From: Gammaproteobacteria bacterium
GTDB lineage: Bacteria; Pseudomonadota; Gammaproteobacteria; Pseudomonadales; Pseudohongiellaceae
Assembly: GCA_963854365.1 (NCBI GenBank)
Contig: CAWKZI010000001.1
Location: 1-51,260 of the forward strand
Direction: 5' to 3'
DNA length: 51,260 nucleotides
Of the stretch, positions 5,382 through 49,932 are shown piece by piece. How positions within the stretch are numbered: position 1 is the stretch's first letter; each line of letters starts with the position of its first letter. The position numbers and the translations under genes were made by a program. The notes under the pieces are model-generated. The model did not search any database, had not been told where the DNA came from, and saw only the letters and a program-made list of their open reading frames with translations.

Positions 5382-5390
5382 GAGAGCAGC

Positions 5391-6257: not shown

Positions 6258-6280
6258 ATTACCTTTTTGAAAAGGATAAT

Positions 6281-20415: not shown

Positions 20416-21789
20416 ATGAAGCTCCCCACAAAGCAACTATTCGCAACACTGATGGGCTCTTTAGCACTAGCTGTTTCGGCCTCAGCGACTGCTCAAGATG
20501 CGGCTCCCACGTTCTATGCAGATGCCCTACCGGTGTTTGAGAAAAATTGCGTGGCCTGCCACCAACCTGAAGGTCCAAAAGTCGGCGGAATTTCAGCGCC
20601 TATGTCCCTGCTCGACTACGATCAAGCACGAATTTGGTCTCCCATGATCAAGAATGCTCTGATCACTGGATATATGCCTCCTTGGGGTGCCCATGAACGG
20701 CATCGCGGCGAATTCAAGGATGAACGCTACATCAACCAGAAAGAATTAGATTTACTTATCGCTTGGGTTGATGGCGGCTCACTAGAAGGTGATCCGGGAG
20801 ACGTAGCTGATAAAGATGGTCTCATAGCCAGCGGCGGAGGCACTGTCCTACCCGAGTCAGGCTGGTGGATTGGCGATCCAGACTTAGTTGTTGAATTTGA
20901 ACGCCCCGTCTACGTTGAAGACAGCATTATGGACTGGCAACCAACAGTCCAATTCCCAGTTCCTGAAGGCGCACATTCTGAACCAAAGTGGATTGCTAAA
21001 GCCGAATTAGCGCCGGGCGGATCGTGGGTACATCATATAGTTTCAAGCCACATGGGTGTAGGAGTCCCAGGACGGGGACCATTTACCTATCCTGAAGGCT
21101 GGGGAGTACTCCTGCCTGAAGACCCATTCATAACTGCCAATATTCACTACCACAAGGACCCAGGCGAAGGTACAGCCGTGACTGACCTAACCAAAGCTGG
21201 CTTTGTATTCTACGACGATGGCGACGTGATTGACCACGTAGTTGAAACTAACCTGCTTCCACACCGGGGCTGGACGATTCCTGCTGGCGATCCTAATTAC
21301 GAGGTGAACAACTCTTTTGAAGTCGAGGAAGATATCTATCTTCTCTCCATGGGCCCTCATATGCATTACCGCGGCAAAGCTATGCGTTATGAATTGGAGT
21401 ATCCAGACGGCGAGCGAGAAGTTCTTTTGTGGGTGCCAGACTACGACTTTAATTGGCAGTTCCTTTACGAATACAATGAACCAAAATTTGTTCCAGCTGG
21501 CTCCACCATGCATATGAGCTGGTGGTTCGACAATTCATCAAACAACCGTTTCAACCCAGACCCATCTAAAGATGTTGTCTACGGCCCTGAAACGACTGAT
21601 GAGATGGCCAATGCACGAATCTACTACGCACCAACCACACCTCGAGGCATAGTTGTGGGCGACGAGCTACCAGCAGATGTTTTAAAAGCTGCTCGAGATG
21701 ATGACAAGCTGCGCCGAGAAAGAGCAAATTTACTGGATCAAAGCCAAGATGATTTTTCTTGGTTAACGGAAGGTGAGAACAGCCGGTAA
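20416..21789 (+). CDS. Periplasmic fusion protein: N-terminal c-type cytochrome domain + peptidylglycine/dopamine-beta-monooxygenase-like dicopper domain
   Basis: The start at ATG 20416 gives the signal peptide MKLPTKQLFATLMGSLALAVSASATAQ. A heme motif CVACH sits in a PSCyt1-like context (FEKNCVACH...YMPPWG...LIAWVDGG). The putative Cu ligand blocks are VHHIV, NIHYH, GPHMHYRG and TDEMANARIYY. Confidence 0.7.
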   Translation: MKLPTKQLFATLMGSLALAVSASATAQDAAPTFYADALPVFEKNCVACHQPEGPKVGGISAPMSLLDYDQARIWSPMIKNALITGYMPPWGAHERHRGEFKDERYINQKELDLLIAWVDGGSLEGDPGDVADKDGLIASGGGTVLPESGWWIGDPDLVVEFERPVYVEDSIMDWQPTVQFPVPEGAHSEPKWIAKAELAPGGSWVHHIVSSHMGVGVPGRGPFTYPEGWGVLLPEDPFITANIHYHKDPGEGTAVTDLTKAGFVFYDDGDVIDHVVETNLLPHRGWTIPAGDPNYEVNNSFEVEEDIYLLSMGPHMHYRGKAMRYELEYPDGEREVLLWVPDYDFNWQFLYEYNEPKFVPAGSTMHMSWWFDNSSNNRFNPDPSKDVVYGPETTDEMANARIYYAPTTPRGIVVGDELPADVLKAARDDDKLRRERANLLDQSQDDFSWLTEGENSR

Positions 21790-21862
21790 GGAGCTCTCAA
21801 TAAAGCCAAAAGATATTAATAGAAATATCATGAGCACAACCCAATACGACGAGGAGAATTCG

Positions 21863-22846
21863 ATGAAGACAGTTAGGTCAGATCAATTGAAACCGCGCCT
21901 ACTCCTTGCGCTTCCGCTGGCTCTGCTGGCTGCTCCGTTATTTGCCCAAACTTATGTGGTTGGTAGAACAGTTGATGGCCAGCCTGATCTTCAAGGCTTG
22001 TGGACTAACGACACCATTACTCCAATCGAACGCCCTGCATCTATGGAAGGAAGAGCATTCCTCTCTGAGGATGAAATCGCTTCTATGGAAGCAGGAACTG
22101 CTGAACGCAGAGAATTTTCTGATAACAATATCGTCGTCGAAGTTGGCGGCAATATCGGTGGCTATAATCAAATTTGGATGGATTCTGGAGACACAGTACT
22201 TTCTACTGGCCAAACCTCAATGATCGTCGAACCAGCCAATGGTAGAGCCCCCATTCGAGAGGAAGCCGCCGCAAGAAGAGACTATGGTTTTGCTAACGTA
22301 GAAAATCATTATATTCACCATACTGTTTGGGATCGATGCATAACTCGCGGCGTACCAGGCTCGATGCTGCCAGCAGGCTACAACAACGCCTACCGCTTCA
22401 TCCAGACTGAAGATTCCTTCACCATTATTCACGAAATGATTCACGATGTTCGTGTAATTCCTCTTAAGAAAGACGCACACATCGATTCCAAAGTTAAACT
22501 TTGGATGGGTGATTCTGTCGCTCACTGGGAAGGCGATACTTTAGTTGTCGAAACAACTAATTATAACGATCGCGGAATGATTGCCAGCAGTGGTGCCGGT
22601 GGCAGGCTAAAAGGTATTCCAGTATCTGAAGACCTACATGTTGTTGAACGTTTCACTAGAGTGAGTGAGGGCACAATTATGTGGGAAGCTAGGGTTACTG
22701 ATCCAGAAAACTATACCCAGCCATTTACCATCACAATGCCTCTCACTCAGGATGATGAATACATTATGTATGAATATGCCTGCCATGAGGGCAACTATGC
22801 TATACCGAACATTCTTAGCGCTGGCCGAGCGAATGACGCCGATTAG
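21863..22846 (+). CDS. Exported protein of unknown family (YEYACHEGNY family, copy A)
   Basis: ATG 21863 has GAGGAG 8 nt upstream. Signal peptide LLLALPLALLAAPLFAQ. It is clearly paralogous to 35705..36742, sharing the blocks GQPDxxGxW, EMIHDxRxxP, HWxGxTLVVET, ERFTR and YEYACHEGNY. Confidence 0.6.
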   Translation: MKTVRSDQLKPRLLLALPLALLAAPLFAQTYVVGRTVDGQPDLQGLWTNDTITPIERPASMEGRAFLSEDEIASMEAGTAERREFSDNNIVVEVGGNIGGYNQIWMDSGDTVLSTGQTSMIVEPANGRAPIREEAAARRDYGFANVENHYIHHTVWDRCITRGVPGSMLPAGYNNAYRFIQTEDSFTIIHEMIHDVRVIPLKKDAHIDSKVKLWMGDSVAHWEGDTLVVETTNYNDRGMIASSGAGGRLKGIPVSEDLHVVERFTRVSEGTIMWEARVTDPENYTQPFTITMPLTQDDEYIMYEYACHEGNYAIPNILSAGRANDAD

Positions 22847-22969: not shown

Positions 22970-24982
22970 CTAACCGACCGCAATCGGTGTCCACGTCTTA
23001 TGTCTCGAACTTACTTCTTCAACCGTGTGTTTACAGACTCCGGCCTTGGTGATTAGTTTGCTTTCGCAGATATCGCAACGTACACACTCTTTAAAATCGA
23101 TCACGTGTCCATGGATAGCTCCTGTAGGACAAGCATGCTCGCAGACTTTACAAACTTGGCATTGCTGCACTCGCTCTATCTTCCAAGGCGAAAGAAAGGA
23201 AGCAACGCCTAAAGCTGCGCCCAATGGGCAAGCGTAGCGGCAATAAGCCCGTTTTACGACAGTAGAAGCCAGCAAGATAACCACAAGTATCCCCCACAGA
23301 ACCGCCGAACGACTGATATAGAAAACCGTACCGAAAGGTTCAAAATACTGGAATAGACTCAGTTCACTATAGAAAATCGCCATGAGAACCAGAAAAGCCA
23401 ATACCCCATACTTTATGTAAATCGCTTTGTCATGCATCGCCTGTGGTAGTTCTTTTTGGAATCGCTTGGGTACAAAGTGTGCAATAAAGTCCTGTAAAGC
23501 ACCGAAGGGACAGAGTGAAGAACAAAATACGCGCCCCCAAAACAAGGTGGTCACTATTGTGAAAATTATAATGAGCAACAATGGCAAGTCGTTAAGAAAC
23601 ATCGATGGGCCCAATTTAATTCCGTTGGTGATATGAGAAACTGAAACGAAGCCACCATCCATCCACCCTAAATAGAACAGCGTCATAGTTAGGGCAGCCC
23701 AGCGAATAGTTGAACTCTTGCGCAGGAATGCAGTCATTACCAAAGCAAACAACACCAGTAAGGCAAAGACCTCTGCCCAAGGCGCGTTATTTATCAGGCT
23801 TGCCCATACTCCTTCCTCTCCGTAGTTCTCCGCATCATCATCAGGAATAGGCAAGAGATCAGCTGGTACCGGATTACCCTGAGCTAAAGCTAAGGGTATC
23901 GGTGGGACCGAATATTCCACTGTTTTGATGTAGTTAGAATTCGCCAAGGTATCACTAACGTTATAAAGGATATTGAACGGCTGAGAAATATCCGTCGATG
24001 GGTCCAAAACCATGGCGCCAGCAAAACGAACTCTTCCGGCTATCTTGCCATCGTCAGCAGAACCAACATAAACAAAACGACGGCGTTCAATTTGATAGAC
24101 ACTATTACCCTGCTCTATCGCCAACCTTTCCTGACGAAACGGTTGGGACGCATCGCCATCAATACCCACAAGAACCATGTTGCCATCTTTAACCCGATTA
24201 CTGGCTTCTCTGTCTGCTCGTGAATAATCATTACTACCGACTAGTAAATCTCCCAAACCATCATGCCCCATGAAAGCGAGAGACAAACGCAACTCAGTCC
24301 CATCAGATAAATCAATATCCATCTGTTTCACCATGCCGTTTTCCAACATGTCATCCCAGCTTTGTTCGGCCAGAAGCCGCAATGCTATGGCATCACTGTT
24401 AGTGGCATTCACATAGTCGGAGTCACTCAGATAGGCCTCTGCCACGCGACGCGCGGCATTTCTGACGCCTCGGGAAACAGCCCAACTAGTGATTGTGGCC
24501 CGCGAGATTCCATCAACATCCCTACCTACACGAAAGCCTTCGATAATGTTTTTTTCTTCAAACTGATTGGGGAAGCGTTCAGAATTGATAAAATCGCCGC
24601 GGATACTTTTATAGGATTCGCGATAATAGAGAACCTTGATGCCGGTGAGCATTCCGGTCAAATCTATACCTACTAAAACGTCAATTGGCGCGCTGTAGCC
24701 AACTTCTTCCGGTGGCAAGTCAGTTGTTTCAAATAAGTAACCTATCAACTCTGGCTCAGCATTATTTGGATCAGATCGAAATGCACTATATACCGGCGGT
24801 TCTCCCGCTTTCTCAGAAAAATGAGTCGCATCCGGCATGAGCTCATTCATTAGCTCAATATCCACTTCAATCAAATCAACCTGACCGTAAGCAAAGGGAA
24901 CAGCGAGAAACAAGGAGCTGAGTGAGAAAAAATAGAGAACAATTATTCGGAATCTTCGAGATAACCAACTACTGCCTGGCAT
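22970..24982 (-). CDS. NosR/NirI-family membrane protein (periplasmic FMN-binding domain, polytopic core, cytoplasmic 4Fe-4S domain)
   Basis: FMN-bind/flavinylation-type motif DVDGISRATITSW. Two membrane-flanking CX3CP motifs (FCSSLCPFG, YCRYACPLG). C-terminal ferredoxin cysteine clusters CQVCKVCEHACP and CVRCDIC. AAAGGA ribosome-binding site. Confidence 0.8.
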   Translation of the reverse strand: MPGSSWLSRRFRIIVLYFFSLSSLFLAVPFAYGQVDLIEVDIELMNELMPDATHFSEKAGEPPVYSAFRSDPNNAEPELIGYLFETTDLPPEEVGYSAPIDVLVGIDLTGMLTGIKVLYYRESYKSIRGDFINSERFPNQFEEKNIIEGFRVGRDVDGISRATITSWAVSRGVRNAARRVAEAYLSDSDYVNATNSDAIALRLLAEQSWDDMLENGMVKQMDIDLSDGTELRLSLAFMGHDGLGDLLVGSNDYSRADREASNRVKDGNMVLVGIDGDASQPFRQERLAIEQGNSVYQIERRRFVYVGSADDGKIAGRVRFAGAMVLDPSTDISQPFNILYNVSDTLANSNYIKTVEYSVPPIPLALAQGNPVPADLLPIPDDDAENYGEEGVWASLINNAPWAEVFALLVLFALVMTAFLRKSSTIRWAALTMTLFYLGWMDGGFVSVSHITNGIKLGPSMFLNDLPLLLIIIFTIVTTLFWGRVFCSSLCPFGALQDFIAHFVPKRFQKELPQAMHDKAIYIKYGVLAFLVLMAIFYSELSLFQYFEPFGTVFYISRSAVLWGILVVILLASTVVKRAYCRYACPLGAALGVASFLSPWKIERVQQCQVCKVCEHACPTGAIHGHVIDFKECVRCDICESKLITKAGVCKHTVEEVSSRHKTWTPIAVG

Positions 24983-25721: not shown

Positions 25722-27509
25722 ATGACTAATGATCATCGTTTCGCCTCCATACTGAAGCTGCTTGTCGCTGCAAGTTCTGCGGTAGCTGTTAGTAGTACCC
25801 TCGCACAAATTCTAGACTATGAAACCGTTACCGATGAGCTTTTGCAAAGCCCTCCATCCGGTGACTGGTTAAGCTGGCGTGGGCAGCCCAATAGCTGGGG
25901 TTACAGCGAGTTAGATCAAATAAACACAGGCAACGTTAATGAGCTGCAATTGGTCTGGTCCTGGGCAATGGATGATACCGGTGCCGGTCAAACCGCACCC
26001 CTTATACATAATGGTGTTATGTTTCTTCCTGGTCCACGTGGTGTCATCCAGGCGCTGGATGCGTCCTCTGGCGATCTTATTTGGGAATACCGTCCGGGAA
26101 TTACGCCGATTGTTGAAGGTTCCGGCGCTGTCGCCATAGGCTCTGTGCAACTTGGTAGCGCGGCAATGCCCGCGACAGCCTATGCAGGGGTGGGTCGTGG
26201 AGTTCAAAAGAATATCGCTATCTATGGCGATATGATTTACGCCGCTACAGAAAATGCTAGCATCGTTGGAATCGACGCACGTACAGGCAGATTAGCCTGG
26301 GAGTCAGCCACTGCTGACCCTGCTCTAGGATATTTTTATACAGCAGGGCCAATTGTTGCAAATGGCGTTCTGGTTACTGGAATCACGGGTTGTGAACGTT
26401 ATAAGAACGATGTTTGTTTTATAACCGGACATAATCCAAATACTGGCGAGGAGCTGTGGCGCACGGATACCGTCGCTCGACCCGGATCTCCTGGCGGCGA
26501 CAGCTGGGGTGATCTGCCTCTGCAGTTCAGAGCCGGCTCTGACTCTTGGGTTGCTGGGAGCTACGATCCGCAAACCAATCTAGTCTTTATGGGAACATCT
26601 CAAGCAAAACCTTGGGCCAGCGCAGTGCGCGGGACTGATGGCGAAGCCCTCTACACCAACTCAACCCTTGCATTAAACCCACAAACCGGTGAAATGAAGT
26701 GGTACTACCAGCATCTTCCCGCGGAAACTCATGACATGGATGAAGTATTTGAGACAATCCTTATTGATGTTGGTGGACGTCCAAGTCTTTTCAAAATGGG
26801 CAAGCTCGGAATTCTTTGGCAGCTCGATCGCTCTACAGGCGAAATAATAAAGGCTACTGACATCGGCTATCAGACCATTGTCAACATTAACCCAACATCC
26901 GGACAAGTTAACTATCGTGATGGCATGATGCCAAGAATCGGTCAGCAAATAGATATGTGTCCCAGCACGTCTGGTTTTAAAAGCTGGCGTGCTATGTCTT
27001 ATTCACCACAAACCAGCGCCTTATATATTCCAATAGCACTTAATTGTGAATTAGCGACCTTTGGCCCAACAGAACAAGTATTGGGCGGAGGAGGTACCGG
27101 ACCCGTGCGGCGAATAAACTACCCTCACCCTGCCTCGGATGACAATTTGGGTGAAATACTGGTTTTAGATGTCCCCAGTGGTGAAGTGAAGTGGCGCTAC
27201 CGTTCACGCGCACCGATTAACAGTGCCACACTCACAACAGCCGGAGGTTTAATGTTTGCTGGTGATTGGAACAGAAACATGTTTGCGTTTAATGCAGAAA
27301 ATGGAGATATTCTCTGGCAAACAAGAGTAACAACGTCAGCACAAGGATTCCCTATTAGCTACGAAGTTGACGGCCGACAATATGTCGCTCTCCCTGCCGG
27401 CGTCGGCGGCGCAAGTTGGTCAGGTATGCTCCCAAGGGATTTAGCTCCTGAATTAAAAACACCCAGAAATGGAAACTCGATGAATGTATTTGCCCTACCT
27501 CAAAACTAA
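25722..27509 (+). CDS. Periplasmic PQQ-dependent dehydrogenase, methanol/ethanol superfamily, atypical subtype
   Basis: 595 aa with a signal peptide. Eight-bladed propeller repeats are present (e.g. ALDASSGDLIWEY, GIDARTGRLAWE, ALNPQTGEMKWYY, VLDVPSGEVKWRY, AFNAENGDILWQT). The active-site region reads THDMDEV. There is no vicinal Cys-Cys pair. Confidence 0.85.
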   Translation: MTNDHRFASILKLLVAASSAVAVSSTLAQILDYETVTDELLQSPPSGDWLSWRGQPNSWGYSELDQINTGNVNELQLVWSWAMDDTGAGQTAPLIHNGVMFLPGPRGVIQALDASSGDLIWEYRPGITPIVEGSGAVAIGSVQLGSAAMPATAYAGVGRGVQKNIAIYGDMIYAATENASIVGIDARTGRLAWESATADPALGYFYTAGPIVANGVLVTGITGCERYKNDVCFITGHNPNTGEELWRTDTVARPGSPGGDSWGDLPLQFRAGSDSWVAGSYDPQTNLVFMGTSQAKPWASAVRGTDGEALYTNSTLALNPQTGEMKWYYQHLPAETHDMDEVFETILIDVGGRPSLFKMGKLGILWQLDRSTGEIIKATDIGYQTIVNINPTSGQVNYRDGMMPRIGQQIDMCPSTSGFKSWRAMSYSPQTSALYIPIALNCELATFGPTEQVLGGGGTGPVRRINYPHPASDDNLGEILVLDVPSGEVKWRYRSRAPINSATLTTAGGLMFAGDWNRNMFAFNAENGDILWQTRVTTSAQGFPISYEVDGRQYVALPAGVGGASWSGMLPRDLAPELKTPRNGNSMNVFALPQN

Positions 27510-27948
27510 AATACAGAAAATATTCTCAATAAGGTTAGTGAAAACTGGCACTCTCCTAGCCATGGCTTTTACCATCTCGAATTTCAGCTCAGCACAGTCC
27601 ACGAGCCCAATCCACGATGGTATTTTTAGCGATGCACAAGCAGCCCGTGGCGCCGAAGCTTACAGCGCCAACTGCGCTTCTTGCCATTCTGTCGACTTAA
27701 GAGGCAATAGTAATTCTCCCAGCTTGCTTGGTCTAAGTTTCATGTTTATCTGGGAAGGAAAATCATTAGGTGATCTTTACACAAAAATGAGCACAGAAAT
27801 GCCAACTGATCGACCCGGCATTTTGACTCAAAAGGTCTATGCAGATATTCTCGCTTTCATTCTAAAATCAAACGAATTTGCCACTGGTGATAACGATCTC
27901 ACCAGTGACACTTCATTTCTGGACGAAATCCCAATAACATCCCAATAG
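27484..27948 (+). CDS. Monohaem c-type cytochrome (probable electron acceptor of the upstream dehydrogenase)
   Basis: Heme motif CASCH, a distal Met candidate in STEMPTDRPG, and a signal peptide. ATG 27484 overlaps the dehydrogenase by 26 nt. GTG 27538 with an upstream AAGG is an alternative start. Confidence 0.8.
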   Translation: MYLPYLKTKIQKIFSIRLVKTGTLLAMAFTISNFSSAQSTSPIHDGIFSDAQAARGAEAYSANCASCHSVDLRGNSNSPSLLGLSFMFIWEGKSLGDLYTKMSTEMPTDRPGILTQKVYADILAFILKSNEFATGDNDLTSDTSFLDEIPITSQ

Positions 27949-34803: not shown

Positions 34804-35526
34804 ATGACAATGTCTCTAATACATAAGCTAATTAAATTCCGTTCCCTCTACACTTGCCTGCTGATGACCACAGTAACTGGAGTGTTTTTACTCCAAACTC
34901 TTACGCCCACCGCAAATGCGCAAGAGAATGAGTTCATCGGCGAGAAGATTGTTCATCTATTACAAGAGCCTCGCCACCGAACTGTGCATGAACAGGACGG
35001 GCTGTTCTTGCTGGATGTGCAAGTCAACCCCGGAGACACCAGCTTTGCCCACATCCATGACCAGGCTATTTTGCTGACCTACATTAATGCTGGCAGCGGC
35101 CCTCGAGATGGTTCTGTGAGCACTAATATTGATTATGCATCTACGCCTCACACACACAAGGTTGCCAATGAAGGCCCTGGACTGATGCGAATTATTGCTT
35201 TCGTGAATAGCGGGCTCGCAGTCTCAGACAGCGATAGCGATGAACCCTCTGGCATGAATAGTGAGCCAAATATCGAGAACCCCTGGTTTCGATCTTACCG
35301 AATAGAATTACAAGCCGGTGAGCAAACTAATATCCAAACCCACAACAATAATACTGTGATTGTTCAAGGCAGTGACGGCCTTGTGCATGTTACACGTGCC
35401 GACGGTATCGCAGCAGAGCTTGATGCTCCAGGCGATTGGACTTGGAGAGATCCTCATTCTCCGTTCATAGTTCGCAATATGGGTCAAACTTCTGTATTCG
35501 TAGCTATAAATGAGGGCCGCCAGTAG
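34804..35526 (+). CDS. Exported cupin-like (bicupin) protein
   Basis: Signal peptide ending TANAQ. The first half matches cupin motif 1, G-X5-H-X-H (PGDTSFAHIH), and motif 2, H-X3-N (HTHKVAN). The second half looks like a degenerate cupin barrel. Confidence 0.45.
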   Translation: MTMSLIHKLIKFRSLYTCLLMTTVTGVFLLQTLTPTANAQENEFIGEKIVHLLQEPRHRTVHEQDGLFLLDVQVNPGDTSFAHIHDQAILLTYINAGSGPRDGSVSTNIDYASTPHTHKVANEGPGLMRIIAFVNSGLAVSDSDSDEPSGMNSEPNIENPWFRSYRIELQAGEQTNIQTHNNNTVIVQGSDGLVHVTRADGIAAELDAPGDWTWRDPHSPFIVRNMGQTSVFVAINEGRQ

Positions 35527-35704: not shown

Positions 35705-36742
35705 TTATTGACCGCCTGACTCCGTTGTTTCACGCTCTATGACTCGCTCTCCACGTAAAGTATTTAACATGCCGTAATTACCTTCGTGACAAGCGTATTC
35801 ATAGATCTGACCACTGGTTTTAATCATTGGAACAACTGCTGAGATTTTATCGGTAAACGTTGAAGGGTCTTCAATCGTAAACTCATAAACTACTTCATCG
35901 CTAGCCGTACGAGTGAATCGTTCTATCAAAACCATGTCGTAGTTACGTCCAGTGCTATTGAAGGTTTGCCGATATCCATTAAAGTTCTTGGTTTCAACTA
36001 CCAGGGTGTTGCCGTCCCAGTGTCCTCTCGAATCACCAGACCACATTCTAATAGCGTCATCTAAACCTGGCTTATCAGTAATAGGTACGATGCGCGCATC
36101 GTGAATCATCTCAGTAAGAATAACTGCAGTATCTTTGTTCTGAAAAATTTGTACATTATTGTTATATAAACTAGGCACAAAAGGCGGTCCAGAATTAAAA
36201 CCAACGATACAACGTTCAGATAGGCCTCGGTCTTCAGGGCCATCTTTGGCTATTCCACCTACAGTGAATAGCACTGGTCTAATTTCATCTGGAGTGTCAT
36301 CAATTTGATTACCACGCTGCACCTGCGCGCCTTCTAATGCTGCAGGCACTTTGCCATTTAGGGGGTAAATGATATGGGAAGTCCGCACATTTTCACCTAG
36401 CCCCTTGGTCTCAAACCAAAAGTCGTTATATCCCAAAACCTGAGGTCCAGCTTTAGGCAAGTCTGGATCAGTATTTAGCTGCGCTGCCCTCGCATCGGCT
36501 GCTGCCGCTGCTGCTGATTGTCGCTCAAGCTCTTTGAGAAGTTGCTCGGGAGTTAGAAATTCTTGTGTACCCCAACGGTCAGGGCGTTGCATCGGCGTGT
36601 CTGAAGCAAAATTCCAAACCCCACTGATATCTGGTTGCCCAAATTCGTTTAGTGGGGCCTCGAAATCAGAGTTTGATTGTGCCAAGGCCATGCCAAAAGT
36701 CAGGGCCATTGCTGCGCCCAAGCCTAGTTGTTTAAATTTCAC
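35705..36742 (-). CDS. Exported protein of unknown family (YEYACHEGNY family, copy B)
   Basis: Signal peptide MKFKQLGLGAAMALTFGMALAQ. It shares blocks with 21863..22846 (GQPDISGVW, EMIHDARIVP, HWDGNTLVVET, ERFTR, YEYACHEGNY). Confidence 0.6.
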   Translation of the reverse strand: MKFKQLGLGAAMALTFGMALAQSNSDFEAPLNEFGQPDISGVWNFASDTPMQRPDRWGTQEFLTPEQLLKELERQSAAAAAADARAAQLNTDPDLPKAGPQVLGYNDFWFETKGLGENVRTSHIIYPLNGKVPAALEGAQVQRGNQIDDTPDEIRPVLFTVGGIAKDGPEDRGLSERCIVGFNSGPPFVPSLYNNNVQIFQNKDTAVILTEMIHDARIVPITDKPGLDDAIRMWSGDSRGHWDGNTLVVETKNFNGYRQTFNSTGRNYDMVLIERFTRTASDEVVYEFTIEDPSTFTDKISAVVPMIKTSGQIYEYACHEGNYGMLNTLRGERVIERETTESGGQ

Positions 36743-36901
36743 ACCTTCCCTCGCTCATTTATTGTTCTACTCTTAAATAAGGTAATACCTAGCTCATCAG
36801 CAGTCAATATCTCTTCACCGGGCGACTGCTTAACTTACTCTAGGATGTCTGGAGCAAAAGAACCTCTACAGCGCAAAATATCGATATCGAAAAGGTTCGA
36901 T

Positions 36902-37381
36902 TTATTCTTCAGATACGTTAAAAAACTCTACCATGTAATTCTGGTAAGGGCCCTCTAAAAGAAAATTATTAAATATTTCATGGAGAAGGTTAACTGCTGT
37001 TTTTGCAGCTTCCCCACCATCACCGACTTGAAATCCAATAGTTATCGACAACTTCTCCTGACGGTTTTTGCAAGAAAAGGTAAAACGTTGATCATCTAGG
37101 CGACGATGAAGCGGTACAGATTCGGCAGAACGCTGTTGTAAAAAAATACGGAACTCTTTGTCCATCTCAGAACGAAATGGCACTGCTGGTAAGATGTCCC
37201 TAATTTCTATTTTTGATTTCTGCGCATACAAAGTTAAATTAAAAGGCATCTCTGCTAGCCAGTGAAAACGATATTTTACACTGCCATTACTCGCCTGCTC
37301 CACCAAACTAAAATTTTGAAAGATGCCCCTGTCAGCATAATTTTGCAGCTCTGCGCTCACTACCTTCACAGTTTCTTGCAT
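36902..37381 (-). CDS. Hypothetical cytoplasmic protein (159 aa), last gene of the cytochrome c/ThDP-enzyme unit
   Basis: It has no signal peptide or TM segment and starts 35 nt after the ThDP enzyme stop codon. No family recognised. Confidence 0.5.
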   Translation of the reverse strand: MQETVKVVSAELQNYADRGIFQNFSLVEQASNGSVKYRFHWLAEMPFNLTLYAQKSKIEIRDILPAVPFRSEMDKEFRIFLQQRSAESVPLHRRLDDQRFTFSCKNRQEKLSITIGFQVGDGGEAAKTAVNLLHEIFNNFLLEGPYQNYMVEFFNVSEE

Positions 37382-37416
37382 TAACTTGTCCCGCCCTTTC
37401 CCGAATAAACCCTTAT

Positions 37417-39393
37417 CTACTTATAATAAGCTAATGCTCCGGGGGCAAAATGTCGTGGCATTGATGGTGGGTATTCATTAGTCCAAAATTCCTTCTTGCC
37501 CTGACAATTAATTAGTGTGGAAATGCCTTCCGTCGCTGCCAACTTATATCCCCTCTCTAGGGCAGGCGTAAACTGCTCAGGGCTAGTTACATATTCACCA
37601 TTGCAGCCAAGCGCCTCAGCAATTTTTTCATAGCGTAGATTTTCTTGAAACAAGTACATATGCTGGGCTCTAGTGGCTCCACGGCCTCCCCCGGATGTCC
37701 ATACTCCCCAAGCATTATTATTATAGACGATCATAACCGCCGGTATACGGTACTTACCTAAGGTGTCGAACTCCATAATCGAATAAGCAGCACCAGCATC
37801 ACCGGTGATTCCAATAACTGGAGAACCCTTGTATGGTGCTTGAGGACCAATGCCATTCTGTACTGCAGCACCTACACCTACGGTGTAGCCTATATCTGGA
37901 CCAATGGCACCATACTGATAGGCTCCATTACATATCTGTCCAGGACGGTAGGCTCGGAGATAGCGACGCGTATAACGGCCAATACCATAACCGCCTGACA
38001 CAACAGCAGTTTGTTGGCGATCAATATCCCCGTTATAAAGAAAATCATTCAGTTGGCGACCTATAACCGCCGGGTGAATTGATTCTGTATCTGCGCTGTA
38101 TTTCAAACCAAGTCGATAGTACTCCTCGCTTTGATCATCAAACGCTTTACGCGCAGAGGCAAGCTCATCTCTCCAACCTTGGCGCGTTCTTGAGGGCAAG
38201 GCGTCTTCTAGAGCTTCAAGCGCTGCTTTCTCTGAGCTAACAATGCCCAGATCTATAGGTACATTACGACCAATGTCACTAGCATCCGGATCAATGCGAA
38301 TCCAGCGAGCGTCAGGACCGAATGCAAACTCACCGATAGAAGGCATACAATATTGACCAACTAGAATAACCAAATCTGCACTGCGAATAGCATCGAGTCC
38401 GGTAGAAGCCGAAAGTGAATGACCATCTGAAAAATGACCACGTTGAGGTGCCGATTCCACGACCGCAATATCATTTTTCTCCGCAACTCTCAGTAGGGGT
38501 TCCCAGGCTTTGTCGTAAAAAACCCCTGTACTGGCAACAATCATCGGGCGAGAAGACCGCTGAATCATTTCTACAGCGCGAGTAATGTCAGCAGGATTAG
38601 GATGGGCTTTTGACTCAGTACGATAACGAGTTTTGTCGTAGTAATACTGTAATTCGCCCGGCTCTTCAAATCGCGCGCGCGAAATTTCACCAGGAAAGTC
38701 TAAATGAACTGGTTTCGGAACTCCTGTCTTAAGCTGGCGGAAAGCATAAGCTGAATACTCATAAATTCTGTTCGGGGTAATCATGCGCTTACCCCATTTT
38801 TTCAAGCCATCAGTTTGTGATTGCTGATAGGCAGTTTGAATTCCATGTTCGGTATCGTCCTCGCCAATAGTCTTATTACTAGCAATCACCAACAACGGAG
38901 ACCGTGCTGCGTTGGCAGCACCAATATTCATAATCATATTAGTGAAACCTGGCCCCTCTGTACCAGAAGTTGCTGCAATCTCACCAGTGACACGAATAAA
39001 ACCATCTGCCGCTGAAACCATATTACCCTCGCAGCGTCCGCCATAACTTGGAATCCCCTCGGCGGCTATAGCATTAATCATGTTGTAATTACCCGGGCAA
39101 CAAAAGAACCCTGCAACGCCTTCATCACTACAGAATTTTGCAAACACTTCTGCCCCGCTCATGGGAAAATTGGCCGGCTTAGCGGCTTCAGCCAAGGTTC
39201 GCGGAATTTCTTCAGGAATCTTGATTCCCGGACCATCTTGTTCTTGAGCCTTAGAGGTTTCACTTTGCATCAGAGTAGCAGCGCCAGCTCCAGCAATTGC
39301 TGTACCCTTTATAAAATTACGCCGAGATACAACCGACTCTTGTTCAGCACTGCTGGAGGCTTTCGATTTTTTCGCATCTTCTTTTTTAGACAT
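37417..39393 (-). CDS. Thiamine-diphosphate-dependent enzyme (acetolactate-synthase/pyruvate-oxidase/benzoylformate-decarboxylase superfamily) with twin-arginine signal peptide
   Basis: ATG 39393 has GAGGAA 5 nt upstream. Tat motif [19 protein letters not shown]. The PYR-domain catalytic Glu lies in [14 protein letters not shown]. The ThDP/Mg motif is GDAGAAYS...VYNNNAWG. The protein has three domains. Confidence 0.85.
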
Positions 39394-39409
39394 GAGAATT
39401 CCTCTGAAT

Positions 39410-39832
39410 CTATTCTTCTGTGGGTCGAGTTTCTTTAGGGCCAATATTTAAGATATGTGCAACAATTTGCCAAATTGTTTGATCATCAATCGTATCTTTA
39501 AATGGAGGCATTTCCAAACCAGCCCCAAATTTTATACTACGAAATATATGCAATGGCGAATCACCATAAAACCATGTATCGGGCGAAGTAAGATCAGCAG
39601 CAATGAAATCAATATTCGCCAAAGCGCGCCCATCAGCGTCGTGACAAGACTGGCAGTTTATAAGGTAGTAACTCTTACCTCTGGCTGCCTCAGATTTAGA
39701 ATAAGCCTGGGGGGCAATTTCCGTGGGCATTTCAGCAGCTAAAGATGTTTGGTAAATGAAGGCCAATAATAAAGGGGAAACTCCGGCAGAAAACCGCAGA
39801 AGATAGCTCATTATTTGTAGAGAAAATTTCAT
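39410..39832 (-). CDS. Monohaem c-type cytochrome, exported
   Basis: Signal peptide, heme motif CQSCH and the Met-containing block GLEMPPF. Its stop codon lies 17 nt upstream of the ThDP enzyme start. Confidence 0.8.
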
Positions 39833-40008
39833 AGGGGATTACTAATTAATTCTCGCTGGGCTGTTAGTACCCAAATCGTCTATTTGTTAGCAAGAGCCCT
39901 AGATTAGCTTATTTCTTAATATAGAAAAAGACTCATTCGAAATCAGTAGGGGATATTTTGGAACAAATAACTCTCAACTAATTCCAATCCATGCATAAAA
40001 CAAAATGC

Positions 40009-40039
40009 AAAAAAAAGGAACTGTTCCCAGTTCCTTTTT
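40009..40039 (-). terminator. Intrinsic terminator after PQQ dehydrogenase 40090..42114 (bidirectional architecture)
   Basis: A8-GGAACT-gttccc-AGTTCC-T5. On the minus strand the hairpin is followed by eight U. It lies 51-81 nt after the stop codon. Confidence 0.7.
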
Positions 40040-40053
40040 CCTAAACAGCATAT

Positions 40054-40080
40054 AAACCCTAGTCTAGACGGCTAGGGTTT
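40054..40080 (-). terminator. Second hairpin immediately after the same stop codon
   Basis: AAACCCTAG-tctagacgg-CTAGGGTTT forms a perfect 9-bp stem. No U-run follows directly, so it may stabilise the mRNA 3' end or act together with the adjacent terminator. Confidence 0.4.
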
Positions 40081-40089
40081 AGTATTTTT

Positions 40090-42114
40090 CTAGTGCCCAT
40101 CACCACCTGAATCAGCAGCACCTGGCAAAGCCATTGCTGTTAATGAAGAAGATGTTTGTAGCATGATGTATTGATGACCATCATGCACCCACGAGCTCAT
40201 GCCGTAACTGCTGCGAGATGGAGCCTCAATCTCGCCAATAATTTCACCGGTAGACTTATCAAGCCCCCAGAGCATTGGCGTGCCATCTGTAGAATTATCT
40301 GAATAGATCAGCATATTAGCAGTCACAACCATAGGCACTAATGCACCTGTACCAGTGTTACCTACTTCCTCAAGGTCAGCGCCAGCCGCTTCAAAAGCAT
40401 CTAGGTTGCGCTGAGAAGTTTCACCAGTTGGAATCATCCAAGCGTGATCGCCGCTGTTCATATCGATTGCAGTAATACGGCTATAAGGCGGCTTGAATAG
40501 TGGTACACCAGCAGGATGGCGCGGTGGGCGGGCTGTTGCGCCAGCTACACCATTCGCGTACTGCGCTGTTGTTGCGCCAGTAGAATCTGGGAACAATAAG
40601 TCAGCTTCTTCTCCAGGAATCAAACGCAGTGCGAAACAGTTCTTATGTGAAGAAACATAGAGCATGCCAGTAGTAGGGTCAGCCACAGCAGGAGCAGTAA
40701 TATTTGCTCCGCCAGCTCCACCTGGGCAGTTCATGGCCGCATATTTTCCCATATCATTATTAGCATGGATCGGCGGATTAAAAAGACCACCCATTACGTA
40801 GTCCCCCAACGCTGCAATCGCATCTGCACGCAGTTTAGGCGTGAAATCAACCAAATCATCTTCAGTAACACCCTGCATTTCATAAGGGTCAGGTTTAGTT
40901 ACATGAGGCTGAGTTGGCGACAATACTTCGCCTGGAACAATTGAAGGAGGCACAGGTCTCTCAACGATTGGCCAAATAGGCTCACCGGTGAGGCGATTGA
41001 ACGCGTAAACCCACCCCTGCTTGGTTACTTGCATGACACTAGGAATCGCACCTTGGCCCTCAACATTCAGATCCAAAAGAACTGGTGCGGTGGGGTTATC
41101 AAAGTTCCAAATTTCGTGATGAACCATTTGGAAGTGCCATGCTCTCTCGCCAGTTCGGGTATCGAGAGCAATGATTGCAGCACCATAAAGATTGTCACCA
41201 GGGCGGAAACCCCCATAATAATCAATAGTCGCACTATTGGTTGGGATGTAGACAAGATTATTTTCAGGATCTGCTGACAGAGGTGCCCAAGAAGACACAT
41301 CACCAGTCCATTCCCAAGCATCATTTTCCCAAGTCTCATGACCATACTCGCCTGGCTTAGGAATTACATTGAATTTCCATTTGAAATCACCTGTTCTAGC
41401 ATCATAAGCAAGAATGTCACCTGGCACGTTTTCGATACGGGCCTGGTGATAACCTTGCTCTGCTGAGTTACCAACGATAATAGTATCGTTAACAACAATC
41501 GGCGGGGATGAAGAAGTAATGTATCCAGTTTCTAGTGGAATTCCATTATAGGGATCATAAGGGTGTCCAAGGTCAGCTAGCAGATCTACAACACCAGTTT
41601 TTGGAAATCCGTCAACGGGAATTTGACCGCCAAAACCTTCAATCGGAACTCCGGTATCGGCATCCAAAGCAGTTAGAAAAAACGCTGGCGAGATCATATA
41701 GACAACACCACGCCCATCGATTTCTGCATAGCCAACGCCTTTACCGTAATCGGCTCGCATTGAGTATTCGCCACGCGGAGTATTCGGTTCACGATAGGAC
41801 CAAATAGTTTCTCCATTTTTAGGATCGATTGCGATTACGTGTCGGTTATAACCAGCAACAGTAAAAAGCTTACCATCGATATAGGAAGGCGTAGAGCGAC
41901 CACTCACAGCGCCAAAACTGGCACCATCCCATTCCCAAGCAACTTCAAGATCATTGAAATTTTCTGCCGATATTTCTGCTGCTGGCGTGTAACGCGTATG
42001 GGCAAAATCATTGCCTAAGGTAAACCACTCAATCGAATCTTGAGCGACCAACAAACTTGAAGAACCCCAAAGGATTATACCTAAGAGAATTCTTCCAGAT
42101 TTTAGAGTATGCAT
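40090..42114 (-). CDS. Periplasmic PQQ-dependent dehydrogenase, glucose-dehydrogenase-like propeller (copy 2)
   Basis: Strong ribosome-binding site AAGGAGAAG and a Sec signal peptide. Motifs AIDPKNGETIWSY, ILAYDARTGDFKWKF, ALDTRTGERAWHFQMVHHEIWNFD and AIDMNSGDHAWMIPTG are present. Paralogous to 32759..34747. Confidence 0.85.
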   Translation of the reverse strand: MHTLKSGRILLGIILWGSSSLLVAQDSIEWFTLGNDFAHTRYTPAAEISAENFNDLEVAWEWDGASFGAVSGRSTPSYIDGKLFTVAGYNRHVIAIDPKNGETIWSYREPNTPRGEYSMRADYGKGVGYAEIDGRGVVYMISPAFFLTALDADTGVPIEGFGGQIPVDGFPKTGVVDLLADLGHPYDPYNGIPLETGYITSSSPPIVVNDTIIVGNSAEQGYHQARIENVPGDILAYDARTGDFKWKFNVIPKPGEYGHETWENDAWEWTGDVSSWAPLSADPENNLVYIPTNSATIDYYGGFRPGDNLYGAAIIALDTRTGERAWHFQMVHHEIWNFDNPTAPVLLDLNVEGQGAIPSVMQVTKQGWVYAFNRLTGEPIWPIVERPVPPSIVPGEVLSPTQPHVTKPDPYEMQGVTEDDLVDFTPKLRADAIAALGDYVMGGLFNPPIHANNDMGKYAAMNCPGGAGGANITAPAVADPTTGMLYVSSHKNCFALRLIPGEEADLLFPDSTGATTAQYANGVAGATARPPRHPAGVPLFKPPYSRITAIDMNSGDHAWMIPTGETSQRNLDAFEAAGADLEEVGNTGTGALVPMVVTANMLIYSDNSTDGTPMLWGLDKSTGEIIGEIEAPSRSSYGMSSWVHDGHQYIMLQTSSSLTAMALPGAADSGGDGH

Positions 42115-47098: not shown

Positions 47099-48691
47099 AT
47101 GAAAATGCTCTCTAAACAATGGCAAGACTATCTTAATTCTCCTTTATCTCGAAGGCACGTGCTACGACTGGGCACGCAGCTTTCTGGCGCTTTAGCTCTA
47201 GGAGCTATGCCGGGATTACTGCATGGTGCTGCACGTAGGTTGACAAGTTTGCAGGCGGACCCATTTACTCTTGGCGTAGCTTCTGGCGATCCCACTGCCG
47301 ACTCGGTAGTGCTCTGGACTCGGCTGGATAATGATATTTTGCGAGAAATGGGAGCTGAGCTGGATACCATCGAAATTGCCTATGAAATTTCTGCTACAGA
47401 ATCCTTCAGCAATGTGCTCCGTCATGGCGTCATCGCAGCGGCTCCTCAACTGGGCCATTCGGCCCATGCCGAAGTTCGTGGTCTGCAGGCAGAAACAGTC
47501 TATTTTTATCGCTGGCAATTAGGCAATGTCACCAGCCCAATCGGGCGAACCAAGACTGCAGCAGCTGCCGATGCGGATATCCAACAACTCAGATTTGCCG
47601 TCGCGTCCTGCCAGCAATATGAGCACGGCTATTTCACCGCTTACCAACATATGGCTGATGAAGATTTCGACCTGATCGTTCACCTCGGTGACTATATTTA
47701 CGAAAGAAGTTGGGGCCAAAATCTCGTTCGCGCCCACGAAGGCCCTGAAATTATAACCCTTACCAATTATCGTGCTCGCTACAACACTTACAAGTCCGAT
47801 CCGGATCTACAAGCTGCTCACGCCTCTGCTCCCTGGATTGTCACCTGGGATGACCACGAAGTGGATAACAATTATGCTGCTGATATTGGAGAAGATGATC
47901 AGACTCCTGAGCAACTGCTAATGCGCAGGAGTGCTGCATATCAAGCTTTTTATGAATTTATGCCGATCCGCTTACCTGTGGGCAGGCAAGGCCCAGATAT
48001 GCCTATTTATCGTCGACTACGGTTCGGCAAACTAGCTGAATTTAATGTGCTCGACACACGCCAATACCGCAGCAATCAAGCCTGTGGCGATGGTCGAAAA
48101 CAAAGCTGTGCGGAACATCTAGACAGGAGCAGAACCTTGCTAGGTGGTGCTCAGAAAGAGTGGCTCTACAATGGTCTAGCGACGGCAGATGCTACATGGA
48201 ATGTGCTGGCTCAGCAGATAATGGTAGCAAGTCTTCGCTCGGTTAGTGATGACGGAGAAGAACTATGGCCCATGGACCTGTGGGATGGCTATCCGTTTGA
48301 ACGACAGGAATTACTAAATATATTAGACCAGACATCAACGCCTAACCCCGTAGTTCTCACTGGCGATATTCACTCTAATTGGGCGGCCAATCTACAGTTG
48401 GATTTCGATAACGAAAACTCGAAAGTCGTCGGCTCCGAATTTGTCGGCACTTCAATTACTTCGGGTGGCGATGGTAGTGATATTTCAGATTATGGCGCTG
48501 CGCTATTAGACAACAATCCTCACGTAAAATTTTATAATGCGCAACGAGGCTATCTAAGCGCAACACTAACACCTGAACTATGGAAAACCGATTATAAAGT
48601 TCTACCACAAGTCACTCAGATCGGTGCTGAAATCAATATACGTAAAACTTATATCAGTGAAGCTGGAAATCCAGGTGTACAAGAAGCGTAA
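47099..48691 (+). CDS. phoD: Alkaline phosphatase D family protein, Tat-exported
   Basis: Tat motif SRRHVLRLG. PhoD N-domain block LGVASGDPTADSVVLWTRL. Metallophosphatase motifs HLGDYIYE and WDDHEVDNNY. Confidence 0.85.
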   Translation: MKMLSKQWQDYLNSPLSRRHVLRLGTQLSGALALGAMPGLLHGAARRLTSLQADPFTLGVASGDPTADSVVLWTRLDNDILREMGAELDTIEIAYEISATESFSNVLRHGVIAAAPQLGHSAHAEVRGLQAETVYFYRWQLGNVTSPIGRTKTAAAADADIQQLRFAVASCQQYEHGYFTAYQHMADEDFDLIVHLGDYIYERSWGQNLVRAHEGPEIITLTNYRARYNTYKSDPDLQAAHASAPWIVTWDDHEVDNNYAADIGEDDQTPEQLLMRRSAAYQAFYEFMPIRLPVGRQGPDMPIYRRLRFGKLAEFNVLDTRQYRSNQACGDGRKQSCAEHLDRSRTLLGGAQKEWLYNGLATADATWNVLAQQIMVASLRSVSDDGEELWPMDLWDGYPFERQELLNILDQTSTPNPVVLTGDIHSNWAANLQLDFDNENSKVVGSEFVGTSITSGGDGSDISDYGAALLDNNPHVKFYNAQRGYLSATLTPELWKTDYKVLPQVTQIGAEINIRKTYISEAGNPGVQEA

Positions 48692-48915: not shown

Positions 48916-49932
48916 TTACTTTCGGGAATACTTTCTAAGCGTCATGCCACCGGTTAAAGAACCATAGACATTACCCTCTGCATCGACAGTAACGCCCTCC
49001 TGTGTTCCAACCTCTGAAGGGTCATCAATAAATTCAAACACTTCTCCATCGTTAACACTGCCGATACGAATGCCTCGCTCAAATCCAGGGTTGGTCTGAG
49101 GACTTGAAGAAGAATCGGTGACATAGAGCATGTCATTGCCATCGATATACATACCACTGGGTCGGCCAAACTGACGCCATTGGTCAATAAAATTTCCTTG
49201 TTGATCGAAAATTTGCAATCTATTATTACCGCGGTCTCCTACATATAATCGACCTTGAGAATCCATAGCCAAAGCATGCGGAGTATGAAAGTCACCTGGC
49301 CCCTCTCCTCTTCTACCCCAACTCAATAGAAATTTTCCTTCTGAATCGAACTTCATAATGCGGGCATTGGATGCTCCTCCATGCCCATCACCAACGAAAA
49401 TGTCGCCATTAGGCGCCACATAAACTGAAGAGGGTTGATTGAATTTATCGTGGCCGTCACCGGGCTGCCCAGCTTTACCTAAGGTCATTAAGAGTTCGCC
49501 GGAAGGACTGAACTTAAACACTTGATGACCTTTTCCATCGCGCCTGAAATCTTCTCCATTCGGCCCTTCACCATCAGCAACCCAAACATTTCCCTTTCCA
49601 TCGACAAAATTACTATGAGGACGAATGAACATGTTTTGACCGAAGCTTTTTAGTAAATTTCCAGCCAGGTCAAATTGCATAATTGGTGCAAGCTCTGAAC
49701 CCACACAGTTATTGGCGCCGCAGCGATCGAAAAGCCAGATACTTGATTGGTCCGGGTGAATAAAAATACCGGCAGTAGAACCAATAGCTCGATTTATTGG
49801 CATTTTAAAAAAACTTTCATCCAACGTGTAGTTAAGGCTGGGTATACTCATGGGAGTGGACTGAGCAAACAAGGTAGCACTTACACAGGCAAGCACTCCG
49901 CTTACAAAAACTATCTTATTCAGCCCAATCAT
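48916..49932 (-). CDS. Exported NHL-repeat six-bladed propeller, peptidyl-alpha-hydroxyglycine-lyase (PAL)-like
   Basis: Signal peptide, then repeated NHL blocks (FNQPSSVYVAPNGDIFVGDGHGGASNARIMKF, FHTPHALAMDSQGRLYVGDRGNNRLQIF). It starts 8 nt after the upstream PQQ dehydrogenase stop codon. Confidence 0.75.
   Translation of the reverse strand: MIGLNKIVFVSGVLACVSATLFAQSTPMSIPSLNYTLDESFFKMPINRAIGSTAGIFIHPDQSSIWLFDRCGANNCVGSELAPIMQFDLAGNLLKSFGQNMFIRPHSNFVDGKGNVWVADGEGPNGEDFRRDGKGHQVFKFSPSGELLMTLGKAGQPGDGHDKFNQPSSVYVAPNGDIFVGDGHGGASNARIMKFDSEGKFLLSWGRRGEGPGDFHTPHALAMDSQGRLYVGDRGNNRLQIFDQQGNFIDQWRQFGRPSGMYIDGNDMLYVTDSSSSPQTNPGFERGIRIGSVNDGEVFEFIDDPSEVGTQEGVTVDAEGNVYGSLTGGMTLRKYSRK

Follow-up and report, generated by a model that had tools for sequence, protein, structure and literature searches.

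Three closely spaced open reading frames (ORFs) occupy positions 36902–39832 on the minus strand of a 51,260-nucleotide stretch of gammaproteobacterial DNA (contig CAWKZI010000001.1; the whole stretch analysed, positions 1–51260, is referred to here as the window), encoding a c-type cytochrome, a thiamine diphosphate (ThDP)-dependent enzyme with a twin-arginine translocation (Tat) motif, and a 159-residue protein referred to as p159. The trio recurs in three bacterial phyla, and its composition suggests that a ThDP enzyme may be exported to the periplasm and there hand electrons to a cytochrome c of its own.

The first gene (39410..39832, minus strand) encodes a 140-residue precursor of a monohaem class I-type cytochrome c, recognised by Pfam and by conserved motifs. 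It is followed by the gene of the ThDP enzyme (37417..39393, minus strand), a 658-residue precursor with a predicted mature form of ~609 residues and 66 kDa, whose ATG is preceded at a distance of 6 nt by the ribosome-binding site AGAGGAA (39399..39405, minus strand). The mechanical ORF list allows this frame to be extended to a TTG at 39444; its orthologues begin just past the cytochrome stop codon. The p159 gene (36902..37381, minus strand), identified by its synteny with the other two, starts 35 nt downstream of the ThDP enzyme stop codon, and its product has no signal peptide. Between the trio and the upstream pyrroloquinoline quinone (PQQ) dehydrogenase gene lies a hairpin resembling an intrinsic terminator (40008..40043, minus strand), in which a T run accompanies a stem of 16 pairs. 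An Rfam scan of 36700–40200 revealed no credible RNA element in the 5′ region, whether a thiamine pyrophosphate riboswitch or any other. This layout reproduces that proposed in an earlier, sequence-only reading of the DNA, which had described an ATG supported by a ribosome-binding site, a signal-less 159-residue protein 35 nt downstream, a strong terminator isolating the trio, and a cytochrome gene directly upstream; the last of these stands in its position only, with the gap between the cytochrome stop and the ThDP enzyme start measuring 16 nt rather than the 17 nt given.

The ThDP enzyme

The three domains expected of a complete ThDP enzyme are recognised by Pfam, with TPP_enzyme_N (the PYR domain) spanning residues 78–188 (38830..39162, minus strand), the central TPP_enzyme_M domain residues 270–395 (38209..38586, minus strand), and TPP_enzyme_C (the PP domain) residues 471–620 (37534..37983, minus strand), at 77, 76, and 73 bits respectively, all far above the gathering cut-offs. 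The catalytic glutamate is E122 (codon 39028–39030), within the sequence GGRCEGN, and the ThDP/Mg motif is G531-D-A-G...N558-N-N (GDAG-X23-NNN, 37714–37803), bearing out the three-domain assignment and the motifs of the sequence-only reading. Domains and motifs together place the protein in the decarboxylase (POX/ALS/BFD) superfamily of ThDP enzymes. E122, G531-D532-x-G534, and N558–N560 are at least 97% invariant among 82 family members, and this invariance of Glu122 and of the GDG...NN motif marks the protein as a predicted active enzyme rather than a binding protein. The family is under unusual constraint, with invariance of at least 97% at 232 positions in these members from different phyla. 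Features specific to the family include the loop F-C-x-P-G-N-Y of the PYR domain, where relatives have F-G-x-x-G-G-H, an arginine cluster (R473, R476, and R477), a C-terminal tail of the pattern N-C-Q...E-F...P...P-G...Y, and an I-x-I-P motif kept in the N-terminal extension of the mature enzyme.

The boundary of the family, defined with a HMMER search of 1.84 billion cluster representatives, is sharp. Full-length members are 43–65% identical to the query, after which scores drop from 531 to 201 bits, with the proteins beyond the drop being ~550 residues long and 26–34% identical. Public records name the trio enzyme ‘thiamine pyrophosphate-binding protein’ or ‘acetolactate synthase large subunit-like’, and no curated NCBIfam model gets close to its cut-off, the best being PRK05858 (176.7 bits against 587). 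Acetolactate/acetohydroxyacid synthase (AHAS) was rejected on this score and on that of TIGR00118 (149.8 bits against 538), and oxalyl-CoA decarboxylase (OXC) and 2-hydroxyacyl-CoA lyase (HACL) on those of PRK09259 (142.9 against 557), TIGR03254 (130 against 739), and NF058623 (135.5 against 600). The closest solved relatives in the PDB are, in order, an actinobacterial HACL (2e-39), formolase and benzaldehyde lyase, BbmA, and the oxalyl-CoA decarboxylases, with full-length matches to 7pt2 (2e-39), 4qq8 (2e-36), 2ag0 (5e-34), and 8vzc (4e-32) at an identity of only ~30%. Glyoxylate carboligase (GCL), AHAS, PoxB, and pyruvate oxidase (POX) are much weaker matches than HACL. The enzyme is not close to POX or PoxB and lacks family-level similarity to them; its closest solved relatives belong to the non-redox group of HACL, OXC, and benzaldehyde lyase.

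The trio enzyme shares with HACL, OXC, and benzaldehyde lyase the three-domain fold, the catalytic glutamate, and the GDG...NN motif. Those enzymes, in contrast, are cytoplasmic or peroxisomal, are non-redox, and act mostly on CoA thioesters, which would not be expected in the periplasm, and they differ from the trio enzyme in its family-specific loop, arginine cluster, and tail. POX and PoxB belong to the same superfamily and oxidise hydroxyethyl-ThDP with electrons passing to the respiratory chain; however, they use flavin adenine dinucleotide (FAD), reside in the cytoplasm or attached to the inner membrane face, and reduce O2 or quinone instead of a cytochrome c.

The central domain bears on whether the enzyme might itself be a POX-like 2-oxoacid:cytochrome c oxidoreductase containing FAD, in which a central-domain flavin relays the electrons of ThDP to haem. 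This domain binds FAD in POX, PoxB, AHAS, GCL, and cyclohexane-1,2-dione hydrolase, all detectable relatives, the loading of two organic cofactors would explain export by Tat, and the known ThDP oxidoreductases all use a relay. However, POX and PoxB are among the weakest PDB matches (48–57 bits, compared with 139 for HACL), no pyruvate oxidase model is found among the top 25 NCBIfam matches, and the central domain alone is nearest to the ADP-binding OXC and HACL, with its sequence not separating bound FAD from bound ADP or from an empty site. A flavin-dependent enzyme of this kind is hence distinctly unlikely. An iron-sulfur relay built from the CC, QYC, and INC motifs was also considered and rejected, with only C98 and C630 invariant among the 82 members (C99 is kept in 41% and C349 in 55%); the presence of only two invariant cysteines excludes a four-cysteine iron-sulfur cluster.

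The Tat signal peptide

The N-terminus of the ThDP enzyme, [51 protein letters not shown], has the parts of a Tat signal peptide of ~49 residues (39247..39393, minus strand; the cleavage site is a predicted one), with a Lys/Ser-rich n-region, the consensus S-R-R-N-F-I-K at residues 23–29 (39307..39327, minus strand), a Gly/Ala-rich h-region ([13 protein letters not shown]), and an S-K-A c-region. R24, R25, and F27 are at least 97% invariant, and Pfam TAT_signal matches the protein at 23.2 bits against a gathering cut-off of 22.7. All but two of the 81 orthologues (79) carry the motif S-R-R-x-F-[LIV], the two being broken ORFs, and it stays in place while the n- and h-region sequences around it diverge. 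Among family cluster representatives with an intact N-terminus, 16 of 17 have the motif with a stretch of 13 or more uncharged residues behind it. The RR motif is missing from all 53 of the closest relatives outside the family (26–34% identity); these proteins start directly at the PYR domain, and a ~75-residue N-terminal extension is missing from all close relatives. The textbook Tat signal claimed by the sequence-only reading is thus present, conserved, and confined to this ThDP clade. PhoD, encoded in the same window (47099–48691), carries a classic SRRHVL signal, indicating that the organism uses Tat.

These features make export of the ThDP enzyme by Tat, as predicted from its sequence, highly probable. 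Were the RR motif not a working export signal, the enzyme would be cytoplasmic or lie on the inner membrane face, a possibility favoured by a TAT_signal score barely above the cut-off. Against this, the S-R-R-x-F motif, an uncharged Gly/Ala stretch, and an AxA-like site are kept across phyla while their surroundings drift, the extension that holds them is peculiar to the family, and the partner c-type cytochrome must be periplasmic to receive its haem; retention of the enzyme inside the cell would appear very improbable.

The lone representative lacking the RR motif is P0152, a diverged paralogue (655 residues, 43% identical) in which EEIFLKK aligns with SRRNFIK. An aspartate replaces the catalytic glutamate of this protein and the family loop has diverged to GTEGPGF, and P0152 may represent an inactivated or repurposed branch of the family.

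The cytochrome c and conservation of the trio

The cytochrome matches Pfam Cytochrome_CBB3 (1.3e-11) and Cytochrom_C (1.1e-4), both above the cut-offs, with a faint match to the cytochrome c550 PedF (E 5.7e-4). It carries the marks of a class I c-type cytochrome, namely one CxxCH ([14 protein letters not shown]), a Met ligand region, and a hydrophobic N-terminal signal peptide of the Sec type, leaving a mature protein of ~108 residues with a pI of 4.8. The haem-binding motif, read directly in the sequence, is CQSCH at residues 60–64 (39641..39655, minus strand) and occurs once in the 140-residue ORF, as the sequence-only reading had it. A single CxxCH and the presumed Met ligand motif GAGx[DE]MP[PAG]F are found in all 81 loci, and every cytochrome retains its signal peptide.

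A scan of one genome per GTDB species returned 226 relatives of the ThDP enzyme, with the best 80 loci kept for comparison. Pseudohongiellaceae/OM182 Gammaproteobacteria, the lineage to which the window belongs, host loci of 84–97% identity, and Acidobacteriota (Thermoanaerobaculia/‘Ca. Multivorans’, Bryobacterales, Holophagales, and Terriglobia) host loci of 63–70% identity, along with one Pirellulaceae. A cytochrome c homologue on the same strand adjoins the ThDP gene in all 80 loci, directly upstream of it in all except L061 and L074, where another gene intervenes, and p159 is encoded on its downstream side in 74 of the 75 loci in which that DNA is present. The genes flanking the trio, in contrast, change completely between lineages, with gammaproteobacterial neighbours including PQQ dehydrogenases, TonB receptors, a secreted 240-residue protein, and a molybdopterin aldehyde-oxidase-like gene, and those in other phyla including penicillin amidase, cyclase, amidohydrolase, metallo-beta-lactamase-fold, esterase, and NHL-repeat genes. 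The sole exception to the presence of p159 is L056 (9950–10500), in which an insertion-element or integrase-like remnant on the opposite strand takes its place; a 128-residue ORF in this locus was rejected as a p159 relative (hhalign probability 0.06).

The linkage extends to more distant members. In a metagenome scan seeded with the divergent member P0150 (51% identity), the trio is kept in a subclade of 52–58% identity (L081, L083, L087, and L088), and the most divergent p159 members (27–31% identity) still lie within trios of cytochrome, ThDP enzyme, and p159. The order is permuted in L090 (2882–5552) to p159, cytochrome c, and ThDP enzyme, with the linkage kept. Mean pairwise identity is 74% for the ThDP enzyme, 57% for the cytochrome, and 48% for p159, and the pairwise distances of the three proteins correlate (r = 0.92–0.95), which fits their inheritance as a unit and would also be expected from shared phylogeny alone. 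The conservation of both neighbours identifies them as true partners and not chance neighbours of the ThDP gene, and upholds the expectation that homologues keep both the RR signal and the cytochrome across genomes; the three genes very probably form one unit.

The p159 family

No Pfam, NCBIfam, or PDB sequence match was found for p159, with a profile search of the PDB returning nothing below E 0.29, and the 590 relatives found in a profile search are all ‘hypothetical’ or unnamed. The sequence-only reading had assigned p159 no function. An AlphaFold model built from a 75-sequence alignment has a pLDDT of 92.6 and a pTM of 0.86, compared with a pLDDT of 44 for a single-sequence model, and shows the topology alpha-beta4-alpha-beta2-alpha2. 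The only coherent set of Foldseek matches to this model in the PDB consists of class I type III secretion chaperones, namely ExsC, SycT, ShcF, VecA, and InvB (top matches 3kxy_B, 2bsh_B, 1s28_A, 9ux0_B, and 2fm8_A; probability at most 0.96, E at least 0.04, TM 0.45–0.57), with the matches to ExsC and SycT having probabilities of 0.95–0.96 and TM values of 0.5–0.57. Type III secretion chaperones bind extended N-terminal regions of their secretion substrates, and are similar to p159 in size and in their alpha-beta(3-4)-alpha-beta2-alpha arrangement. They share no sequence similarity with p159, however, and no type III secretion genes are found in the window or in the loci, and we do not assign p159 to this chaperone family.

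A role as a cytoplasmic escort of the Tat substrate is suggested by the strict link of p159 to that substrate, by the length of the ~49-residue signal, and by the lack of a signal peptide on p159 itself, and we put the chances of such a role at about even. The same genetic pattern is seen with TorD/DmsD and NapD, small signal-less cytoplasmic proteins that bind a long Tat signal until the cofactor is loaded and whose genes adjoin that of the substrate. In contrast to this shared pattern, p159 has no sequence or fold similarity to these proteins, and membership of either group was rejected, with no Pfam or NCBIfam match and neither fold among the Foldseek matches.

Alternatively, p159 may be a small subunit that hitch-hikes across the membrane on the Tat signal of the enzyme and has a regulatory or cytochrome-docking role in the periplasm. 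Its lack of a signal peptide and constant position after the large subunit would suit this, the gene order resembles that of the large and small subunits of AHAS, its distances co-vary with those of the enzyme (r = 0.95), and in hydrogenases and dimethyl sulfoxide reductase signal-less partners are known to cross by Tat hitch-hiking. However, p159 has no ACT or ALS_ss_C match and no ACT-like fold, on which grounds the AHAS small subunit was rejected, the secretion chaperones are its only coherent fold matches, and co-variation follows from shared phylogeny in any case. We therefore regard a hitch-hiking subunit as rather unlikely.

Proposed mechanism

Taken together, the best explanation of the trio is that a Tat-exported holo-ThDP enzyme passes electrons to the cytochrome, with p159 acting as its escort, a reading to which we give a probability of about 0.5. 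The enzyme would be made in the cytoplasm, where it would bind ThDP-Mg2+ and assemble into the obligate dimer or tetramer of its superfamily. Until this is finished, p159 would probably keep hold of the long signal peptide or of the N-terminal extension, and the folded holo-enzyme would then cross via Tat. The cytochrome c would be exported separately by Sec, with haem attached in the periplasm. There a small carbonyl substrate, which might be a 2-oxo acid (losing CO2), an aldehyde, a 1,2-dicarbonyl, or an acyloin, would be converted by the enzyme into a ThDP-bound carbanion/enamine. The cytochrome c would oxidise the ThDP intermediate in two one-electron steps, after which the acyl-ThDP would be hydrolysed to a carboxylic acid and the cytochrome would feed the aerobic respiratory chain.

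The pairing of a Tat-exported catalytic subunit with a small Sec-exported cytochrome c has parallels. In flavocytochrome c enzymes (FccAB sulfide dehydrogenase and PchCF p-cresol methylhydroxylase) and in SorAB sulfite:cytochrome c oxidoreductase, a subunit with a non-covalent or organic cofactor is exported in folded form by Tat and a small Sec-exported cytochrome c accepts its electrons. Whilst the gene pairs are alike in this respect, the trio enzyme depends on ThDP instead of FAD or molybdopterin and is accompanied by the third gene p159, and its complex with the cytochrome is a putative one. The trio likewise resembles the PQQ alcohol dehydrogenases with their cytochromes (PedE/PedF and MxaF/cL) in combining a periplasmic dehydrogenase with a small dedicated cytochrome c; in contrast to these, the trio cytochrome travels with the ThDP gene, and not with PQQ genes, in Acidobacteriota and Planctomycetota. 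By analogy with such systems, the synteny of the two genes makes transfer of electrons from the ThDP enzyme to the cytochrome a slightly favoured proposition, with no flavin relay indicated.

Several observations weigh against this reading. Its principal weakness is that the closest solved relatives of the enzyme, the HACL, OXC, and benzaldehyde lyase/formolase group, are non-redox, with POX and PoxB far more distant by the PDB scores given above, and neither a flavin nor an iron-sulfur relay is identifiable in the enzyme sequence. Three soil or peat loci (L084–L086, ~4887–6830) have no cytochrome or p159 within 4–5 kb, with the enzyme in these loci keeping the RR signal PSRR[NS][FL]LAP. We know of no case in which a ThDP intermediate directly reduces a c-type cytochrome under physiological conditions. 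Structurally, p159 matches the secretion chaperones weakly (E ~0.04, with nothing at E ≤ 0.001 in the Foldseek search of the PDB), and the p159 family has a median pI of 9.7 compared with the acidic type III chaperones.

The first of these points would be accommodated by an exported non-redox lyase, decarboxylase, or carboligase acting on acyloins, 1,2-diketones, or 2-oxo acids in the periplasm, with the cytochrome either a structural or regulatory partner, or serving a dehydrogenase that acts just before or after. The non-redox PDB matches, the want of a flavin or iron-sulfur signature, and the three loci with the enzyme and no adjacent cytochrome all favour this. However, the cytochrome stands beside the ThDP gene in 80 of 80 loci in three phyla while other neighbours change, its link outlasts the permutation of gene order, and one would not expect it to travel with the ThDP gene if it served other dehydrogenases. 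Furthermore, the window has a single PQQ dehydrogenase of the methanol/ethanol kind, and this one comes with its own cytochrome. We regard a non-redox enzyme as an unlikely explanation of the trio, though a serious competing one.

In its boldest form, the reading in which the exported enzyme reduces the cytochrome would make this the first periplasmic ThDP dehydrogenase, in which a dedicated cytochrome would take electrons straight from the enamine and dispense with any flavin or iron-sulfur relay, and p159 the founder of a new family of Tat escorts with a type III chaperone fold. We advance this form tentatively and consider it doubtful in all its parts together.

Genomic surroundings

The window as a whole is an island of genes for periplasmic catabolism and oxidation. 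It contains four PQQ dehydrogenases (at 25722, 32759, 40090, and 49941), a soluble glucose/sorbosone dehydrogenase (GSDH, 12468–13757), a 3-keto-disaccharide hydrolase (17181–18002), an NHL/lactonase-like protein (48916–49932), and the Tat-signal PhoD noted above, along with three TonB receptors, several esterases, and a DUF3500 protein, a setting that fits extracytoplasmic oxidation. The PQQ dehydrogenase at 25722–27509 (plus strand) is followed by its own small cytochrome c at 27484–27948 (plus strand), the two ORFs overlapping, which gives at least one PQQ enzyme of the island a cytochrome partner distinct from that of the trio. The sequence-only reading had linked the trio to the neighbouring PQQ dehydrogenases as a source of substrate, a link that did not hold beyond the Gammaproteobacteria; PQQ dehydrogenases neighbour the trio in gammaproteobacterial loci only and were rejected as obligatory partners. 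Being lineage-specific, they cannot define the substrate of the ThDP enzyme, and since the context varies in other phyla, the substrate cannot be read from the neighbours.

Several proteins recur around the trio in the gammaproteobacterial lineage. A secreted His-rich protein of 240 residues (p240; 34804–35526, plus strand) accompanies the trio in 21 gammaproteobacterial loci, and in L002 (10521–11231), L005, and L006 its gene comes straight after that of p159 and in the same orientation, in the manner of a fourth operon member. It has no assigned family, with only a faint match to Cupin_2 (E 0.15), and we do not claim it as a cupin. A secreted 345-residue protein with no family, encoded downstream of the trio (35705–36742, minus strand), has homologues near the trio in eight gammaproteobacterial loci and a paralogue of 30% identity within the window (21773–22846, plus strand); the ORF 5′ of this paralogue (20326–21789, plus strand) has weak cytochrome c and Cu-monooxygenase-like matches. 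Also within the island of the window, a 670-residue protein (22970–24982, minus strand) combines FMN_bind and Fer4_5 domains, and resembles the membrane redox proteins NosR and NapH. In L004 (10484–12892, minus strand) and 14 other gammaproteobacterial loci, the gene immediately downstream of p159 runs in the opposite direction and encodes a molybdopterin-binding member of the aldehyde oxidase/xanthine dehydrogenase family, linking the trio in that lineage to another possible aldehyde-oxidising enzyme.

Other ThDP enzymes are found near the trio outside this lineage. In many Acidobacteriota loci a second enzyme, ~5.6 kb upstream of the trio on the opposite strand, consists of an N-terminal Rieske [2Fe-2S] domain fused to a POX/PoxB-like body (L037:320–2296, minus strand; L025:281–2251; L026, L032–L036, L044, L046–L050, and L052). 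This fusion matches PRK08611 at 376 bits, adjoins a 3-keto-disaccharide hydrolase and a TonB receptor, and is an uncharacterised ThDP enzyme of the redox type; it was rejected as another exported enzyme, as it starts MDDP... and has no signal peptide. One Terriglobia-like contig (L096:5666–10419) encodes, after the trio and in the same orientation, a second ThDP enzyme that lacks a signal peptide, together with an FAD amine oxidase and a protein of the glyoxalase/VOC family.

Implications

To our knowledge, the members of this ThDP superfamily are regarded as enzymes of the cytoplasm or of organelles, with the oxidative members using flavin or iron-sulfur relays. A literature search for a periplasmic or Tat-exported ThDP enzyme, or for one coupled to a cytochrome c, found none, in agreement with the earlier statement that no characterised system has this layout. 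Whilst the components come from known superfamilies, namely ThDP enzymes, Tat substrates, and class I cytochromes, their combination of location, dedicated cytochrome, and third protein family appears to be undescribed, and points to an undescribed way of oxidising small organic molecules outside the cytoplasm.

The association with the trio also offers a first functional handle on the ~590 ‘hypothetical’ proteins of the p159 family, and with only three genes and soluble products, found in Pseudohongiella-like genomes, the module is small enough to be directly testable by heterologous expression. If the proposed mechanism is correct, it would add a new class of cofactor to the periplasmic respiratory dehydrogenases and pose a new electron-transfer problem for ThDP enzymology. 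It would also suggest a way in which abundant marine (OM182/Pseudohongiellaceae), soil, and sponge-associated bacteria obtain energy outside the cytoplasm from small carbonyl compounds, with aerobic heterotrophs using 2-oxo acids or aldehydes as a source of respiratory electrons and having no need to import them.

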